A DNA stretch of 64,000 nt from Rhizodiscina lignyota (lineage: Eukaryota). Position numbers and translations under genes: made by a program. Numbering within the stretch: position 1 is the first letter of the stretch; the number at the start of each line of letters is the position of its first letter. Below the pieces are notes generated by a model that did no database searches, had not been told where the DNA came from, and saw nothing but the letters and a program-made list of their open reading frames with translations. Positions 317 through 22,422 of this stretch are shown here, in pieces. Location of the stretch: NCBI GenBank assembly GCA_010015805.1, contig ML978121.1, positions 1,488,001-1,552,000 of the forward strand, written 5' to 3'.

Positions 317-819
317 ATGCAATCGTGACTTTCATGTGTAGCTTAGAACGACCATGACTCCAAGGAAGACCTCAACGCACCGTTTGCAACGTCGCTTGCA
401 TCTTCCTTTCCTTCCTCTAGCCCATCGGGAGGAAGCTCTAAGCTCCCACCCCTCTGAAAGCTCTTCCTCATTCCTGCCGTGCCAGCCGTCGTCACGCTCC
501 CATTTCTCGATGGTCCAGTTGTGACACTGCCCGCACGACTGGGCATTCTGCTTCCCATCGGACTGTACATGCTCTGATGCGACCTTCGCCGCCACGCTTT
601 TGCGAACGAGAATGCTTCAAGATGCTCCTTGTGTTCTTTGGCGACAGGTCGCCGGTATTTTAACGGCGGCATCTTCTCTCCCGGCTTATAAACATTTGGA
701 TTTGTACGGTAGTCGAGGGTGGTGCCATTGGTGTTGGTTTTGGAGAGCGAGGAGGTATCGGAGTTGCCGCTGGAGGAGTTGCGGGAGAATGTCTTCCTCA
801 GGCGCTCGCGGAAAGGCAT
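303..819 (-). CDS. Conserved fungal hypothetical Ser/Arg-rich protein; 3' exon uncertain
   Basis: ORF 343-819 (MPFRERLRKTFSR...YKPGEKMPPLKYRRPVAKEHKEHLEAFSF...SMYSPMGSRMPSR). GTGCGT donor at 380 after DVAN. A possible acceptor at 329 gives a stop at 303, but the true last exon may lie left of the window. Confidence 0.7.
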
Positions 820-2522
820 GGTGGCTGAATTGGATATTTATTTCGAGAATATTAGAATGGAAGAATATTTAATTGAAGGCCAATTGATCGCTAAAATATG
901 GCGTTTGACGTTATGGAGGCGGAGATTAGCGGCCTGACGATTGGTGGTCGAGGCGTGGCGGCGTCATGCACGCGATAGGGATCGCGTCGATAAGGTGACG
1001 TTCTGGAAGACGGTTCGATGCAGGCTGTGCCAGCGTTATAAGAGAGACATATCTACCTGCGGTTTCAGGTTCGGAGATGAAGAGATATCCAAAGCACCGC
1101 GAGACATGTGAGAAGGCGGCGTACGTACGCACGTCGAGAGGTCGAGCGGATATTTTAAATACGCCTCATGCCTGGCGATTCTCCCGCCGCCCGCAAGGTG
1201 GCATCCGAATCGTGGGTGCGTGTTTGGGGTGTGATGGGGACGGGGGATGCTCCTTGGGGCAAAACCGGGGCTTGCGGGAGGTTGCGGCTCCTTAGCTTGA
1301 ACATGCTTCGCTGAGCTTTTCCTCGCCTTCGCGACGCTGCTGGGATGGCATGCTCTGCACGGCTAAACGTTGGGCGGAGCTCGTTGGTCGTTCAGGAAGG
1401 TGGCCGGACAAGCTCCTGAAAGCGTTGGGGAAGGCTGACTGCTGCTTTCTTGGTCGCTGAAGCTTTGATGCTTTTGGGGACTGCCAATTCGTATCTGGCA
1501 CACATCCTGCATGGTGTTGCATCTCTGCTCGTTAGGAGGCTGACAGTTGTTTGGCATGGTCCCTCTCGTCTTACGGGGGTCTATTACGATACGCAGATTT
1601 GATCAACCCACGATCTTCCAGCGTGCTCTCGGTGCCTCGCGGATTCGCGCTGTCGTTTACCATGTTTCGATTGTGGCGAGCGCTTTGTCGGGAAAGAACC
1701 GGATCAACGGTTGTCTTACGACCCCCACTGATAGCATATTTGCCTGTAAAAGGGAGGCAGGTCTTACTAGAGATAGCAGAAGGGTCGAGGGATACTTGGG
1801 TACTTCGCCCCATGTCAGAGAAGGAATTCAGCCGTCGGATGCGGCCGAGCATGGTGGGATTATTGCAGCCACAGCCAGCCACTTCGTAGTTCGTAATGCT
1901 GTCCAGAGCGACGAGCAACCTGGAAGAGTGCATTCAGCTCGGGGCTGCGCAGAACACGAGTTCACGAGACGTGCGGAGCCTGATTGAGGCAGGCATAGCA
2001 GGCCTGGCTATTGCCAGACTATCGAGTGTGGGGAAGCCCCGCCAGTTTGGTAGGTACCTGTGAATTGGATGATCGTCGGATCGCCTGGCGTGGTTCGCGA
2101 CCAAGGTAGGCCGCCTGCGAAATTACGTCAGTGCCTTCCGCAGCTCAATTCCCTGCTCTTGGGCGACTTTTCGATCGAGCTCTCTCTGGCAAGCCGATCT
2201 CGACACTCGATTGGAATTGGTGTGGTCCAGCCGCGGGAAAGCTCTTCTTTCAGTTCCTCGTTTGTTGCTAGCCAGCGGCTCGTTGCAACTGTGCGCGCTA
2301 CAGACAATCTCCCAGCCGTGCGCAATTGAGACTCGTTGACGTAACTGAGCGTAGCCACGCTTTCATATGAAGGCGCCAACCACCACATCCACTGTTTGAC
2401 CTCTTGACCGTTTGTCTGCTCTATAATCTCCATATTCACCTACGACGTACAAGTTGTGCTGGAATCTTGGTCTAAATCCCAAATCTCCGCAGCCAAGTTT
2501 CAAGCAAACCAGGCCTTTCACG

Positions 2523-5500
2523 ATGGATAAGCTAAAGAAGATTCTGTGAGTGGAATCATCACGTTTGAATTCGGTTCCTAACTAGCACTGTCTAGCAAAC
2601 CCGGTGGCCGTACCGACGACGAAGTTCTCTACAGCTCCAATCGCCCAGAGAATAAAAATCCGCAACCCTCCTCTTCCCCCAAGGCTGAGAGAGACTCTGG
2701 CATGAAGGCACAAATACCGTTCGTGCTATAACCCTGGTATCATCTGCAAATTGCTGAATCATAGCTTCAGGAACTCAGAAGGCAGTAACTATGATGAGAA
2801 TCGCTTCACAAACACTGCCGCCGAGAATAACCCGATCGCGTATGACGAGAGCCAATATGGCACTGCCGGAGCCACCACCGCCACACAGCAAGAAGAGCAG
2901 GGAGCTGCAGCAACAGGTCCTCAAGAAGATGCTGCTACAGCTACTGGAGGTGCGTACCATCAATAAACTTCCTCATATTCCTCTCCGACCCAGAGCAACG
3001 AAGAGCCAGTCTGCCACTGTGCGCATTTGAGGCCGTGCCAAAATATTTGTTTTGCGCCTTTCAGTCATTCGCTAGTTATATTTAAAGATTTTCACCTGCA
3101 TCTTTGGATATGTGTCAGTATGGATCATGTAAATTAGAAGATGTATTTCCTTGTTAAGCTGCCAAAGCTATGAACCTGTCACTTTACATTTGAAGGCTCG
3201 AATCGTTGCTCTATATCGGAATTCCAGTAAAAGTATCGTCAATTTCACCTTGTTCATGGTGTTTCATTGTATCTTCCTTTGCTGCTATCAAAATCTGCAT
3301 ACTCGAGTCGCTTCTGAGTCGCTGACAATATCATCATCGCGTAGGTAGTGCATCATCCATGCCATCCTACCTCAGACCATCACAACCCGCCGATGGTGTA
3401 AGTCAAGCAAGCATCAAATCGGGCATAATCGGCCATCACTCCGAAGCCCAATCTTCACCACTTCAACAGACAAGCGCCACAGAACCACAATCGGAACAGC
3501 AACCACCCTTGGGTGATCAACATAATCAGTACGGAAGAGACGCAGCCATTGCGGGTGGTGCTGCCGCTATGGCAGACAGAGCATATGATGCAAGGCGACC
3601 TGAGGATCCCTCTGCCACACCAGGATCGCCGGGAAGTGGTTCTGAACATCATGACGGCTATGCTCACGTCCAACCCACAAGGTGAGTTCCTTTCACATGA
3701 CCAGGTAATGACGTGCTTATGGTTCCCAGCACTGCTCGAAAGTTCTCCCTAGGAGGCTCAAAACGGCCGGAAAACCTGCAACCTGCTACTACGGAGACAT
3801 CGCCAATGCCTCAGCATCATTATGGTTATGATGCAGCTGTGGCAGGAGCAAGTGGAGCAGCTGGAGCTGGAGCATACCAGGCCTCGCGTGGTGACCAACA
3901 GCCGGAACCCAGCATGGCCTCCGCCTCAACCACACAGCCAAATCCTTCCGCAGTAGCTGCTGCAAGGACTGCTGCCGGTAAACAGCCAGATACTTCTGTA
4001 GACTCAACGCAACAACAACACCACTACGGCCGGGATGCTGCCATAGCTGGAGCAGGCACAGCAGCAGCGGCTGGTGCGTACGAATACGGCCATGAGCGTA
4101 ATGACAGTAAGGTGGAGAGCGGACCAGCTTCTCACACAATTGGCCCTCACAAATCCGATACAATGAACGTCTTTGATCCTCGTGTCCAACCAGAACCAGA
4201 GAAAATGAAGAGTGGGCGAGCCGGCCCAACGGAGACGGATCCCGCGCCACATACTATAGGCCCGCACAAGTCTGATACTCTCAACGTTCTTGACCCACGT
4301 GTGCTGCCTCAGCCTGCAAAAATGAAAGATACCAGCGTACAGTCTACTAAGGAAGATCCTGCCCCTCGAACTGCCGGGCCGCACAAAAGCGACACGCTTA
4401 ATGTGCTAGACCCACGTGCGCAGCCTCAGCCGGACAAGATGAAAGGATCCCGTGGTAATGATGCTGCTGCCGCTGCTGCTGCCACGGCAGTAGGCGTAGG
4501 TGCATACGAAGGTGGCAAACGTGATGAGACTAGAACTTCAGAGGCAATGACTGAGGATCGCCCAGCGCCAAAGATGGAACCTCGCGCTGCAGGAACCGGA
4601 GCCCCGGCCCTCAGGAAGAATGATAGTGTTCAAAGCTATCAAGATCATGGTCCGCTTTCGGACGTGAAAACTGAATCTTCTTACAGAGGGTGGCGCAATC
4701 CTTACTCGAGTGCCGCACTAGATCCAAGAGTCGATGGCATGCCGGGAGCTTTTCCAGTAACTCCGGGTGAAGAGCGAGACGAACCTCAAGCAGAGCATAA
4801 AGATTATGCTGCAGCTGTTGGGGGTGCCGGTGTCGGTGCAGCTGGCTTGGGAGCGTATGAGGCTCGCAGAGATAATAAAGAGAAGGCTCCAGAGCTTGCG
4901 GCTTCGGATTTCGGTGCTCGACAGGACCGACCTGAGACAATTGGCACTGCCATTACAACGGACGAGCCTGTACCATCGCCAACGAGACCTCAAGTTTCCC
5001 GTAAGGCGGTTGGGGAGACAGCTGAACCAGCTGAATCAAAGCACGACTTTGCTAGAGACGCAGCGCTCGGTGCTGGTGTCGGTATCGGTGCCGGTAGCCT
5101 TGGTGCATATGAAGCCACCAAGGACCCTCCTCAGTCCACAGTACCAACATCCACGAAGGATGTTTACCCCGACGAGCTAACGTCACCTCATTATCACCAG
5201 CCAACTTCAGCAACAACAGCCGGCGGACTGCAGCCCGATTCTGCTACAGGAGATATTGATCAGAACGCTCAAGCACCCTCCCATCACTATGGCAGGGATG
5301 CTGCTGTTGCAGGAGGAGTAGCTGCAGCTGGTGCGGGAGCCTATGGAATAGGAGAGCACTATGCAGGAGATCAGAATCAAACTCCCATTCCAACTACTCT
5401 CCCCCAGAGCAATTACCCAGATCAGCTCAAGGAGCCACATCATCATCAGCCGACATCTGCTGCCACGGCTGGTGGCCTACAACCTGACTCCTCTACCGGC

Positions 5501-9889: not shown

Positions 9890-10806
9890 TAATGATATCG
9901 TTGTTGACTTGGGAGATCACCCCTCCGTGCCGATATACGTCTCGCTCAGTGACAACAACACGTTTGATGCAGTGATGCGCAATCCCACTGCAATTGCTGA
10001 TCAACTGGGCTTATGGAAGTCTGGCAAGGGCATCCTTGTCGATCCTCCGGCGTCAACGATAGGGTTTTTGCGCCTCTCTAAGGACAGCTAGGTCTTGAAG
10101 CAATTCGGAGATCCATCGTGTGGTCCTACGTGACCTCACACAGAGATGATATTTGTGGATGGATTTGTGCCTTTTGGGAGTATCCCACCATCAGAAAAAC
10201 GAGACATATATGGCACTATTGGCGGCAGTTGTTAGCCCAATGTCCAGTAAGGCTATATCACCTATCCCTGAGTGGCATTGAGCTGCTGACAATATCTTCA
10301 AGCCGGTTCTGTTCACATATATACCACCGATCCATCCGAGCAGCCGCTCATAGACCCAGCTTGGCTAGGGTCCGAATTCGATCAGCAGCTTGCATTGGAG
10401 ACTATCCGGAACGCCGTGACTTTAGTGACTTCTTCCCCACTCGACAGCTTCACCATTGGGCCTTTTGGGGATTTTGCTACCGCGCTGGCCGCAGAAACTG
10501 ACGAGGCTTTGCTGTCGTACATGCGTTCCCAAGGGACAACGATTTGGCATGCATTTTCGAATACGCGCATGAGTCCGTATGGTACTGATTACGGTGTCGT
10601 CAATCCCGACTTCGCGGTGAAGGGTATCAAAGGGTTGAGGATCCTTGATGCCGGCGTTTTCGTGAGTCTTGCTTATTCGTATTTAAATCTCGTTAGCTGA
10701 CTGGACATAGCCGACGCTTCCCACATGCCATCCGATGGGCGTTGTATGGGTTTTTGCTGAGCGCGCAGCAGATTTGATTAAACGAAAGTACGGTAACGAT
10801 CCTTAA
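9890..10806 (+). pseudogene. GMC oxidoreductase (aryl-alcohol oxidase/AA3_2-like), C-terminal half only, pseudogene
   Basis: Motifs DHP, DPSCGPT*PHTEMIF, AVVSPMS|TGSV...PLIDPAWL, TIWH..., GVVNPDFAVKGIKGLRILDAGVF|PTLPTCHPMGVVWVFAERAADLIK. In-frame stops at 10089 and 10131, a frameshift near 10195-10199, and no GxGxxG N-terminal FAD domain upstream. Confidence 0.85.
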
Positions 10807-11137
10807 AGAGCGCGGACTAAGGACCTATAGTCGGAGAAGCAAACCATACATAACTATTTCGTCTGGGTTGATCCGACATAAAGTCCTGTTGAACAACACT
10901 GCTAATGCTCAAAAGTCCTCAACGAGCATCTCTAAGCATTTTCTTTCCTCTTTTATTTGCTGGGAACTCGGGTGTTATGCGACCAAAGGACGTTCTGCTA
11001 AAGAATCAATCAGTTATGGTGACTAAAATCCACCGCGACACTGGACAGATATTTAGGGAGACGACGGGCGTAACTATCAGTGTGTGGTGCTATTTTTCAT
11101 GATGACTATATAATTAAAGTAAGTTTTCCTTACCATC

Positions 11138-11334
11138 GCCTTCGGGCATCGTGGGGTAATCGGTACAGAGATTAAACTGAAAAGAACGGGTACGGTTAAC
11201 ATGTTGCAGGGCGGTTCGATCCCCGAAGGGATCAAAATACTAACATTTAGGCGCTCAGTAACGGACAGCACCTTCTCGTGGTACTGGGTGTGAGTAATCT
11301 TAAAGATGAAACTAAGACTGTCCATTATTTTTTT
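11138..11334 (+). ncRNA. Candidate Pol III-type structured ncRNA with a U6-like 5' end and a U2 snRNA-complementary tract
   Basis: TATATAATTAAA at 11107-11118 (-31); GCC-TTCG-GGC hairpin 11138-11147; A box TGGGGTAATCGG 11152-11163; ACAGAGA 11165-11171; B box GGTTCGATCCC 11213-11223; GATCCC-CGAA-GGGATC hairpin 11218-11233; TACTAAC..TAG 11238-11250; GGACAG/CTGTCC stem 11263-11268/11318-11323; T7 and T8 runs at 11328 and 11339. Confidence 0.55.
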
Positions 11335-11346
11335 GGCCTTTTTTTT
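11328..11346 (+). terminator. Putative RNA polymerase III terminator (T7-GGCC-T8)
   Basis: Two oligo-T runs immediately after the 3' stem of the candidate ncRNA. Confidence 0.5.
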
Positions 11347-11512
11347 AAAATTTTCTATCCAGCTGTTAAGTGGTAGAGGCCCACTACGAGTCTCTCTTCG
11401 AAAACTACTATCATCAGCATGTCAAGCCTTTTTTTTCTTTTCTATCTAGCTGTCAAGTGGTAGAGGCCCACCACGAGTCTCTCTTCAAAAAATACTGTCA
11501 TCAGCATGTCGA
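11336..11512. repeat. Direct tandem duplication with an 87-bp period; differences are mostly transitions
   Basis: TTCTATC(C/T)AGCTGT(T/C)AAGTGGTAGAGGCCCAC(T/C)ACGAGTCTCTCTTC(G/A)AAAA.TACT(A/G)TCATCAGCATGTC(A/G)A. TAGAGGCCCAC occurs at 11374 and 11461. Confidence 0.9.
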
Positions 11513-11865
11513 ACGATACCATGGCACATGTTGTTTGGATACACGAGGTGACGTATTGTTTACTAGCCTCGAGGCACCCGCGGCAGACATCACGTCACGT
11601 GGCCTATCTGTGTTGAGCAGGTATTTATTCTTCCCAACCTCCACAAACTTTCAATTTTTTCAACAGCGCACAACCAAACCCCACACAACCAACCCGCGCA
11701 CAACCAGATCTCGCACGTACAAACCTCACACGTACAAACCACTCTTCACACAGGCATGGCGAATCTCCGTCAGTCCCACGGCAAGTATGAACTATACACC
11801 TCATTGACCATGGCAGAACAACTTCGATTAAAGCCGCAGAGCGTGCTATCGATCTTCTCAACACC

Positions 11866-12328
11866 ATGGCCCCCGACCTCCACTCCCTGCCCGCCGAGCT
11901 GCAGTACGAGATGATCAGCAACCTGACAGGGCTCAGCCGTTACTTCTTGAGCGAAACGTGTCAATACTACCGCAACACTCTCGGAGCTTTCAACATGCCG
12001 CAACTAGTAGACGCCGAAGTGGAGTGGAACCAGATGGTTATCGATCGTCATGTCGGACGTAGGGCATACGGATGTCGCGAGTGCCTTCGTTTGAGGGGGG
12101 GAAGAAGAGTTTTCGATCGCTATGGCAGTGCGGGATGGTGATAAGCGATTTACGAGAATCTGCATCGAATGTGGAGTGAGGACGGGGTTCTACAAACCCG
12201 GAACGATGCTAGAGTACCGGCGCGCAACCCATTGCGTGTGCCTGGTGTGCAACAGACTGAAGAATGCCGAGGCGGAAGATACCCGTCGCCGTCGGGCGAT
12301 GTGCCGTGATTGCGGTCCATCGAACTAG
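11866..12328 (+). pseudogene. F-box-like, Cys-rich protein split by a +1 frameshift in a G7 run (pseudogene or assembly error)
   Basis: N-terminal LHSLPAELQYEMISNL...LSETCQYYR is F-box-like. CRECLRLR is followed in another frame by RICIECG...CVCLVC...CRDC. Removing one G from 12095-12101 gives a continuous CRECLRLRGEEEFSIAMAVRDGDKRFTRICIECG. Confidence 0.7.
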
Positions 12329-12499
12329 TGAAAAAGATAGAAGTCGACTGTGTTGAACGTTCACGAAGATAGCTACAATACTATGGTTGTCCTGAGTAAA
12401 TACATGCGGTTCCCAATACAAATGAAAGTCACCAAGTTCCGACAGTTAGATAGAGGAGGGTTCTTTGAAGCTTCAATGCATACATACGCCACGTTTCAG

Positions 12500-13330
12500 G
12501 CAGCAGAAATAGCTTCTTCTACTTGGTGAAACCATTCAGTAAAAGTATTGGTTGCTTGTACTTGATAATAGATCTTAGAGTGCAGCTGTAGTGAAGCGGA
12601 ACCGCTTGAACCCCCTCGACGGTGACAATAAAACTGGCCGCGGCTTTCAAGACACAGAACATTATAACTCTGTAACCTGTATACGTAGTAAGAGGTACAA
12701 GTTTCTCAATGGTCTAATATTGTTTAGTATACTCTAAAGAACGTATAACTAAGCTTTAAGAGATAGTCCTACTTGGCTTGAAGTGTAAGAGCCGTTCGCC
12801 CTTGGATGTTACAGCTTCTTAGCAGCCGACTATTTTGTCATCCTCGAGATGGCTCGGTCTAACATTATAACTCCTGTCCCTACGAAAGAAGGTCCGGCTG
12901 TGGTTACTACGGAGCTAGTTTCTCGTGAGCGTATGAGACTAGCAACGACGTCTCTTTTCCGCGATAACGAGAAGTAAATCCTCTAAGGCAGGCTAAGTAA
13001 GCTACTCTACGATAATGTTAAATATAAACTTACTAATATATAGAAGTCTCTCATAAGTACTGAAGAAGACTGTAATAGAAAGGCTCTCTGCACTGTTCAC
13101 TCGCGGGAAATACATAGCTCCTTGTATATTGTCGTTGTTCCACTACACTACCCATGCTAGACTTGGTACATGTCGAAAGTAAGTTATAAGTTACTTTTGG
13201 TATAGTTTCACCAAGTTCAAGGAGAGACTCCTTCCGCTCAAACTGTAGTATACCCAAGCGTTAGCATATAGGAGAAGCCAGGTCAAATGTCCCTCAACGA
13301 TTGATTGATATGCACTTATGTTAACTACTA
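12500..13330. other. AT- and TpA-rich tract without long ORFs, probably a RIP-degraded repeat or transposon relic
   Basis: Visibly enriched in TA, TAG and CTA (e.g. TCTAATATTGTTTAGTATACTCTAAAG, TTAAATATAAACTTACTAATATATAG) compared with the flanks. No recognisable protein motif. Confidence 0.45.
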
Positions 13331-20356: not shown

Positions 20357-22422
20357 TAGATGCCCTTGTGTTCATTCGTCTACATCGGATCAGTTTGATA
20401 CCCAAATTTCCTAGCAACGTCTGGCCTCGGGCACGTATCGCCTTTTCATTTGTTCGCGTGGATCTATCAGATACCCCTTCTTTTTCCAAAACATGTAGAT
20501 CGGGTTTCTTCATTGGCTTTGCATAGCGTTTGGGAACGACCAGGAGCTTGGCTCTCCTGTCACGGTTTCGTTTGTGCTTTTGATCACCGTAATCTCCACA
20601 CTTGCCTCCTCGGCGATCACAGAATGTCGCGATACTCCATCCACACTACATCTCCTTGATCACTCCAACCCTGATCTCGTCACCTTTCCTACACCGTCTC
20701 TACCGCACATAATGTAATGTTTTCCATCACTGCTTACATCGTCCACTGCATCTGCTATTGGTCCGGGCATACCGTTGGGCCCCTTCACACAGCAACAGCG
20801 AGGTGCATCTTATGAGTTTGATTCAATACGCAATGTTGAGCGATTTGCTTCTGATTACTAGTTATGATCGTCGAGGCTTGGTGTACACAAGTTGCGCATG
20901 CGGGAAGCAGACCCAAGATAGTACGCGTCCGCGAGATACGGGACCAAAGAATACAGAGATTAAGATGGAGCGTTCGAGTACTCATGCTTTGGTGATGGAG
21001 CTGAAGTGTGAATGCCGCCGCGTCGTACGGCACTCGATCCGGTCACTCCAGATGTTTTACTTTACCCCACACAGACGGTACTTGGGAATCGATCCCTCTG
21101 GATTCCATGCATGGTGCGACTAGAATCGAGTTTGTCTTTGACCTATGAGCGCCGTAGAAGGAACAAACTCCGCGCAAGATGTTGGGGGAGGCTTGGGGAT
21201 GGCTCGACGAAGGCTGCTCTGCAGCGCATCTCGACAGAATTACTTGTCTTGTCATCACTGGGGATGGTTCGAGGCCCGGTCTCATGCTAAGCCACGTGAC
21301 AACGGAGCTCTGCCCGGAAATCTTCCAGGGTTCTTCTTATGGAGCTCCCAACTCCATGTCACTGTATTTAAACTTCGTAGATCAGCGTCGCTTTCTTCAT
21401 AACGTGTACTCCATTCCGCTCGTGTCTTGATGCTCCTTCGCGATTCCAATTTTATGCGGAGTTTCGGCTTCACAGTTTCTCTAACTCTTTCAACTTACTC
21501 CGCAGATCAGATGCAGTTCCTTTAGAGTTTCGAGCTTACATAATAAGCTCAGTGCGCAATTGCTCTCGCTATCACAATTGCCTTGAAACTACCTTATTGC
21601 TCTTGCTCCGAAGCGGTTGCAATACTGCGGCGCTCGGTGTCCAATATCAAGCTGTGCCACGACGGAGTTGCTCTGCCCGTGGTCGCAGCGGTGATGGTGG
21701 AGGAGGGCGGCGAATGATTGGTCGGGCTCCGCGCGGGATGACATTTTGGGGTGGAACGAGGAGCGGAGCGTCGGAGAAGCATCCTGGAAGGGTCTGTGCT
21801 GTCCGCCGGCGTCGCGACCGAGAAGCTGGAAGAGGGCCAAGCGATAGGGCTCGCGGCACTTCTGAGCGCAAAGAACAATCATGCAAACGCCGGCAATATA
21901 CGAGGGATCGAAGGGCGCCCTCAGTATTCGACCACAGTCGCACTGCTCAAGCCACGAGTTGCTGAGGCATCACTTCAGCGCGGGGAATAGGGGGGCAGAC
22001 CTGAGGATGACGACGACAGTCAGGATTTCACGCCGGGCAGACGCACGGGGAGCGGCTCAGCCGGCACCCGCTGTCCCGCGGTGCTTAAAAGCCTCAGAGA
22101 TCGCCTCAGCGCTCCCACCCTCCGCTCGCGCTCCGCCCTCTCTCATCCTCCCTCATCCTCCCCTCTTACTCACCATCCCGATCAGCGTTGCGAGCCCAAA
22201 CACCCAATATAGCTCGCTAACACCATTTGTTAGCATTTCTCCAGCTAGGGCCTCTTTGTACACCCGTGTCTCCATAGTACCTGTGCCTCCGAAGTTCCAT
22301 TTGCGATATAATAACTCCCCGCCCTCCTTGTGAATGCAAGGAACGTCCGCTTAACGGCCCGATCGCGTATAAACTTCCAGAGCAAAGGCGGTGGAGCATT
22401 GTGGGATGGTAAAGAGTCGAGC

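Follow-up and report, generated by a model that had tools for sequence, protein, structure and literature searches.

Classical U2 retropseudogenes, known from mammals, are 5′ fragments of U2 with target-site duplications, and fungal U6 genes are laid out with a TATA-like box, ACAGAGA and a terminal T-run. In crocodilians, the short mobile repeats called SINEU contain U2 or U1 snRNA sequence, for which template switching has been proposed (PMC4494074). In the literature searched, SINEU is the documented case of snRNA pieces in short mobile elements, and the parts of that literature drawn on here describe none for fungi and none in inverted orientation. Fungal SINEs are short (140–493 bp) and low-copy, with degenerate A and B boxes and an oligo-T tract (PMC5063351). 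The transposons Utopia and Keno target U2 genes, leaving U2 from nucleotide 39 at their 3′ junction, and the sections of that paper used here name no fungal family of Utopia (PMC4640811). Introner-like elements are near-identical introns present in multiple copies in Dothideomycetes (PMC4457414).

Here we analysed a locus in a 64-kb stretch of DNA, the whole of which we call the window, that an earlier note had interpreted as a single structured ncRNA gene with U6-like Pol III architecture and a long antisense tract to U2. At its largest extent, as given by the ends of contig alignments in the public sequencing run X1, the element occupies 11080–11346 of the plus strand. We observed that it is a repeat, that its tract originates from U2 and that it matches no U6, U2 or tRNA family.

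A dispersed repeat with truncated and internally deleted members

We aligned contigs of X1, the sole public run containing the stretch, to positions 10950–11550 at 80% identity or more. This DNA-like run comprises some 34 Mb of contigs and probably represents the very sample behind the window; what it shows concerns that sample and not conservation in other species. The alignment returned 31 contig pieces with 80–100% identity (9 at 99% or above, 8 at 95–99%, 9 at 90–95% and 5 below 90%), 17 of which aligned only in part, and the details of individual copies come from the best 8 of 33 pieces. Summed contig depth, which is not equivalent to copy number, was 148 in both flanks and 650–3228 within 11097–11348. 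Contigs of 87, 14, 60 and 69 kb from other loci ended inside the element with 3–16 differences and continued into unlike flanks. Of the contigs carrying the window's own flanks, the left one stopped at 11109 and the right one started at 11308; from this, identity with the nearest other copy spans roughly 11080–11337.

The ends of these copies were not uniform. Among the loose ends listed (6 of 13), those on the 5′ side lay at 11080, 11089, 11103 (four times) and 11108, and those on the 3′ side at 11337 and 11346 (four times); most other copies start at 11103 and end at 11346, and the flanks beyond these two positions agreed with each other only at 0.63 and 0.53. Depth also divided the plus-strand unit into three modules. 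The 5′ module, with a TATA-like box and a UUCG hairpin (11103–11159), was covered by many contigs (summed depth 1126–2172 over 11097–11159); the middle module, with the U2 piece and a B box (11160–11243), by few (650–995); and the 3′ module, which ends in T7-GGCC-T8 (11244–11346), was the most heavily covered part (1314–3228 over 11244–11348). Two copies had internal deletions, one of 11155–11237 and the other of 11188–11267. Within the middle module, the bin 11202–11222 was covered by a single 146-nt unitig at a depth of 649, approximately 4.4-fold that of the flanks, a figure that points to some four or five nearly identical copies of this module. At 11119, six contigs holding most of the depth there read A and not G. 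C-to-T or G-to-A changes accounted for 2 of 14 differences between copies, with no RIP-like pattern. A BLASTN search of 11060–11380 against the window found no second copy, only an adjacent tandem duplicate of the last ~45 nt.

The stretch therefore belongs, as a single copy, to a dispersed repeat family in which other members are truncated or have lost internal parts. The description of the locus as a single ncRNA gene does not survive this result, and a small RNA that binds U2 as a chaperone, guide or regulator becomes less likely because the locus is a repeat. The locus is thus better annotated as a repeat than as an ncRNA gene, and it should be treated as belonging to a new short repeat family with an inverted U2 fragment.

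Upstream of the element, an open reading frame encoding a GMC oxidoreductase C-terminal domain ends near 10700 (Pfam, E = 5.1e-21); downstream, the next long plus-strand open reading frames begin from about 11790. An 87-nt tandem duplication adjoins the element at 11336–11510 (11342–11423 against 11429–11510, 88% identity). Both of its units are preceded by GCCTTTTTTTT (11336–11346 and 11426–11436) and each contains a GTGGT..ACCAC/ACTAC hairpin. From the shared GCCTTTTTTTT, the duplication seems to take in the last 11 letters of the element and to be younger than its insertion. Just upstream of the next open reading frame, 11666–11740 holds four copies of a 15-nt CA-rich direct repeat (GCGCACAACCAAACC-like), an array with the look of a promoter or 5′-UTR microsatellite.

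The complement of U2 snRNA and the signals around it

A 22-mer of fungal U2 genes has its exact reverse complement on the plus strand at 11166–11187. The earlier note had assigned this sequence to U2, and correctly so: an exact-match scan of metagenome contigs found the 22-mer in at least 117 fungal loci of U2 type, and 19 of the 20 loci submitted to Rfam scored at or above the U2 gathering threshold (70–158 bits). On the U2 sense strand, GTATCT stands directly upstream of the 22-mer in 114 of the 117 loci listed, and the downstream sequence is U2-like in all of them. A U2 profile of 198 positions, built from 44 intron-less loci, was matched over at least 170 positions in 100 of the 117 listed loci; the remaining 17 were mostly cut by contig ends or introns, one (L076) being an isolated fragment.

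When the window was searched with this profile by nhmmer, there was one match, on the minus strand at 11193–11152 (profile positions 36–74; 21.1 bits, E = 5.6e-6). With up to three mismatches allowed, the 22-mer occurred once in the window and in 0 of 100 shuffles. The Rfam U2 model (RF00004) scored 8.8 bits on the minus strand against a gathering threshold of 46, over model positions 36–82. Directly 3′ of the 22-mer on the plus strand lies GGGTAC (11188–11193); read in the U2 sense, the window has GTACCC here, where 114 of the 117 listed loci read GTATCT. The tract, which appears as antisense when read on the plus strand, thus extends over 11166–11193 (minus strand) and is a real, non-chance complement of U2 nucleotides 36–63. 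The minus strand holds this segment and no other part of U2, and the earlier statement that it is not a plain U2 copy was borne out by the low covariance score and by the lack of a U2 5′ end or Sm site. The flanks of the 22-mer in the window (GTACCC upstream, TACCG downstream) occurred in 0 of the 117 listed loci in the exact-match scan.

These absences from known families and from the listed loci could point to a unique, degenerate chimeric snRNA pseudogene or a chance mosaic of short motifs, as could the existence elsewhere of another isolated U2 fragment (L076, profile positions 30–76). We give this explanation almost no credence: it is contradicted by the multi-copy state with different flanks in X1.

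Several features of the metagenome U2 loci were observed along the way. In one of the 117 listed loci, L104, the 22-mer is preceded by GTACCT and not by GTATCT, which is one of the two differences seen in the tract; the tract might therefore agree better with the species' own U2 than with the common fungal form. A second isolated piece from this part of U2 is L076 (661–707), which lies below the Rfam U2 gathering threshold and is surrounded by purine-rich sequence that is not U2. Many of the fungal U2 genes are apparently interrupted by spliceosomal-type introns (L009, L062, L066, L056, L071, L083, L018, L022, L053, L034, L001 and others), at sites just before the branch-point-recognition region (..CTAAC..AG|) and just after the 22-mer (CTCTGAAAC|GTAAGT or CTCTGA|GTATGT). 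Rfam matches in these loci span 228–267 nt, against about 192. The intron positions bracket nearly exactly the U2 segment that is present in the window element.

We checked the positions of motifs around the tract by reading 10800–11700 and by scripted location of strings. The letters described earlier were all in place. TATATAA (11107–11113) lies 31 nt before G11138, inside the repeat unit and 4 nt from its commonest 5′ end; G11138 begins a GCC-UUCG-GGC hairpin (11138–11147; fold and string location), and the core of this hairpin, CCTTCGGG (11139–11146), is the reverse complement of CCCGAAGG at 11222–11229. The B box, GGTTCGATCCC, at 11213–11223 is a perfect match to the consensus in a pattern search, and it overlaps a palindromic hairpin, GATCCC-CGAA-GGGATC (11218–11233), in which the UUCG loop belongs to the minus strand. 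T-runs of seven (11328–11334) and eight (11339–11346) close the unit, and the plus strand has no run of four or more T residues in 11138–11327. Two further motifs fared less well. The 12 letters proposed as an A box at +15, TGGGGTAATCGG (11152–11163), are present and only weakly A-box-like by eye; ACAGAGA, at +28 (11165–11171), is also present but is not an independent U6-like signal, because six of its seven letters sit in the U2 complement.

Read from the letters, the plus strand carries a putative Pol III-like signal set, consisting of the TATA-like box, the B box and the terminal T-runs. The B-box pattern GGTTCGANNCC occurred twice in the 64 kb, where 0.5 occurrences were expected, and two or more were present in 11 of 100 shuffles; the B box alone is unusual for a 250-nt stretch, yet not decisive. 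The second exact match to this pattern, GGTTCGAGGCC, lies on the plus strand at 21266–21276.

The element may resemble the 5′ end of U6 and tRNA. At gathering thresholds, Rfam reported 0 families in the whole 64-kb window, snoRNA, U6 and U2 included. At E ≤ 10, there was no match to U6, tRNA, 5S, 7SL or snoRNA in 10900–11600, 11130–11215 or 11132–11248 (701, 86 and 117 bases). The view that this is not a canonical U6 was upheld: U6 (RF00026) was rejected for want of a covariance-model match, and, by reading, ACAGAGA is followed by the U2 complement and not by an AGC triad and internal stem-loop. ARAGORN found no tRNA anywhere in the window and none in 60 of the 117 listed U2 loci. Among 2750 scripted deletion variants of the element, 0 were called at the default and 90% thresholds; 122 were called at 80%, against 0–1097 in 12 control regions, 3 of which equalled or nearly equalled the element. 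Because the deletion scan was not above controls and neither ARAGORN nor Rfam gave a match, we rejected a tRNA ancestry of the element.

Three other candidates were set aside. A minus-strand U2 gene containing introns was considered by reading and rejected. A box C/D guide for U2 could be drawn with ATGATGA (11099–11105) and CTGA (11177–11180), but its C box straddles the commonest boundary, 11103, the complementarity does not stop at CTGA but extends beyond it, and Rfam gave no match to a snoRNA family. A 114-aa stop-to-stop frame across the element on the minus strand had no Pfam family and no relatives at E ≤ 10 (2 candidates), and it was rejected as a gene.

The locus had also been called structured. 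Its plus strand folds no better than dinucleotide shuffles (minimum free energy −51.3 kcal/mol against a mean of −52.1; z = 0.20), which does not support that description; the minus strand gave z = −1.37.

Origin of the element and of its U2 piece

The explanation that we favour, with modest confidence, is that the locus is a copy of a short dispersed repeat that has captured an inverted piece of U2; this repeat would most likely be SINE-like and non-autonomous and carry signals of Pol III type. The repeat unit would measure about 244–267 bp and belong to a family of a Dothideomycete-like fungus, its candidate plus-strand signals being the TATA-like box, the weak A box, the perfect B box and the terminal T7 and T8. 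The U2 piece, of 22–28 nt from nucleotides 36–63, would lie backwards in the middle module of a young subfamily only, with about four or five near-identical copies. Its probable source is U2 RNA or DNA, with filler insertion or template switching as the route of capture, and it probably did not evolve for U2 binding. Its sharp-edged identity over 22–28 nt, its place in a young-subfamily module and the 5-nt direct repeat around it make a captured fragment of an abundant RNA or its gene the simplest account, for which SINEU of crocodilians and isolated U2 fragments such as L076 are precedents. This direct repeat, GGTAC, stands on both sides of the tract (11162–11166 and 11189–11193), as would be expected after an insertion. 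Relative to the Pol III-like signals, the piece unusually runs in the inverse direction, and we can only guess at a twin-priming-type inversion or DNA-level filler as the cause.

Several observations are consistent with a SINE-like element. Dispersed copies have unrelated flanks in the X1 contigs, and their 5′ ends vary more than their 3′ ends, as in 5′-truncating retroelements. The perfect B box, the T-run end and the short, low-copy unit point the same way; the A box is only A-box-like by eye, however, and most aligned copies apparently lack the B-box module. Against this reading, neither ARAGORN nor Rfam detected a tRNA-, 5S- or 7SL-like head, BLASTN found no partner LINE or related sequence in the window, and the tail is T-rich with no poly(A). 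In this copy, no direct repeat of 8 nt or more that could be a target-site duplication abuts the ends; the sole 7-mer direct repeat, TATTTTT, lies in the T-run and is adjacent to neither end. The TATA-like box inside the unit also counts against a retrocopy, because a transcript starting 31 nt downstream would not carry it. A unit running from just before the TATA-like box to a T-run terminator would fit a dispersed family of Pol III genes as well.

The missing target-site duplication and tRNA-like head would also fit the remnant of a non-autonomous DNA transposon, which might be Helitron-like or derive by deletion from a larger element, with conserved end modules and a variable interior that picked up host fragments, the U2 piece among them. 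We consider this explanation considerably less likely. DNA transposons of this kind typically capture host fragments in either orientation. The end modules are covered far more than the middle, and interiors and deletions differ between copies, as is usual for internally deleted elements. However, the B box and the terminal T-runs would then be a coincidence, and variable 5′ ends with a nearly fixed 3′ end fit retroposition better. By reading, the ends are neither TG..CA nor TC..CTRR, and the element is without terminal inverted repeats, as 10000–12500 contained no inverted pair of at least 14 nt. A terminal-inverted-repeat element was rejected on the same count, as was a solo LTR on its lack of TG..CA ends by reading.

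It is doubtful that the copies are true small-RNA genes of Pol III, scattered as a family through the genome, which would be the proposal of the earlier note in multi-copy form. The full-length members would then produce an RNA of ~190 nt that pairs with 28 nt of U2, across stem IIa and adjacent to the branch-point-recognition sequence, and acts as a decoy, chaperone or regulator. Dispersed small-RNA genes have a precedent in the 5S genes of filamentous fungi. The commonest boundaries, 11103 and 11346, bracket the TATA-like box at 11107 and the T8 run nearly exactly, the B box is perfect, and the plus strand has no internal run of four or more T residues. The predicted duplex between the tract and metagenome U2 reached −43.7 kcal/mol, compared with −14.5 ± 3.2 for 200 shuffles, and in the centroid fold most of the tract is left unpaired; the global duplex of the whole element with U2 (−73.6 against a shuffle mean of −80.4) is uninformative. 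The two positions that are not identical would form G–U pairs if the RNA is the plus strand. The earlier note had drawn on these pairs for a six-nucleotide extension of the duplex, and GGGTAC is indeed present and able to pair in this way. However, with only two transitions among the six letters, the case for selection on wobble pairs is weak, and since GGTAC flanks the tract on both sides, the six letters may be a junction duplication that is not derived from U2. Members are truncated and deleted, and at 80% identity or more, most aligned copies apparently have neither the U2 tract nor the B box; this looks like decay and speaks against a maintained gene family, as do the absence of a fold signal and of an Rfam family and the absence of the tract's flanks from the listed 22-mer loci.

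A mobile element and a U2-binding RNA might also be one and the same. On this model, which we regard as very improbable, the few full-length copies would be live Pol III units whose RNA of ~190 nt docks on U2 through the 28-nt tract. Such a transposon-borne decoy would either perturb splicing or ride the spliceosome, and its own TACTAAC/TAG and GT sites would allow removal of inserted copies by splicing, through which new introns might arise.

The element does contain look-alikes of splicing signals in order: GTAAGT (11119–11124) and GTACGG (11190–11195) on the plus strand as candidate 5′ splice sites, a perfect TACTAAC at 11238 and TAG and CAG at 11248 and 11256, with TACTAAC and the TAG after it (11238–11250, plus strand) resembling a branch point and 3′ splice site at the start of the 3′ module. 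These could belong to an Introner-like element of Dothideomycetes whose copy landed outside a gene or in an untranslated region, and Dothideomycetes are among the closest named relatives of a neighbouring protein (59% Rhizodiscina, 52% Coniosporium), which places the fungus in a thinly sampled lineage in or close to this class. We nonetheless consider this origin very improbable. The boundaries 11103 and 11346 match no GT..AG pair (GT at 11119 and 11190; AG at 11250 and 11258), the A at 11119 destroys the first GT in most copies, and the copy looks intergenic, ~400 nt after the GMC oxidoreductase open reading frame and ~450 nt before the next long one.

As to class, our own preference is for a SINE-like retroelement over a deletion-derivative DNA element or a dispersed Pol III gene family. 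We infer that the element has been mobile, that Pol III transcribes it and that its tract arose by capture. The RNA of full-length copies, if transcribed, could pair with U2. An expressed family would then amount to a natural U2 antisense: a repeated, possibly Pol III-driven unit with a 28-nt near-perfect complement of a critical part of U2.

Relation to known systems

With Introner-like elements the element shares multiple copies, short length, splice-site and branch-point signals and a fungal class (PMC4457414), but its unit boundaries are not GT..AG and most copies are without the first GT. It resembles a U6 gene in a TATA-like box ~30 nt before a purine start, in the letters ACAGAGA and in a T-run, whereas it is multi-copy with deletions and has no covariance-model match. 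Truncated U2 retropseudogenes are, like the element, short dead pieces of U2 away from U2 genes; the window piece differs in being internal (nucleotides 36–63), in lying inside a repeat and in having at most the 5-nt GGTAC on its flanks. The junction of Utopia and Keno at U2 nucleotide 39 is close to the start of the window fragment, but those transposons are inserted in U2 genes and flanked by them, whereas here it is a repeat that encloses 28 nt of U2. In SINEU, as far as the source describes it, the snRNA part is in the sense orientation at the 5′ head, followed by a poly(A) tail, and is confined to crocodilians (PMC4494074); the window piece is internal, 28 nt long, inverted and fungal.

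Fungal SINEs, of which the element is at most a candidate member, share several features with it. AfuSINE2 and AfuSINE3 of Aspergillus fumigatus and Mg-SINE of Magnaporthe are, like the element, short, dispersed and low-copy, with oligo-T on their 3′ side; to their degenerate A box and better B box the weak A-box-like motif and the perfect B box of the element may correspond, and the heads of fungal SINEs often do not fold as tRNA, at least in those that the source treats (PMC5063351). Compared with them, the element has no detectable tRNA or 5S similarity and no target-site duplication, it encloses a TATA-like box within the unit, and it carries an inverted piece of U2 between its A- and B-box-like motifs.
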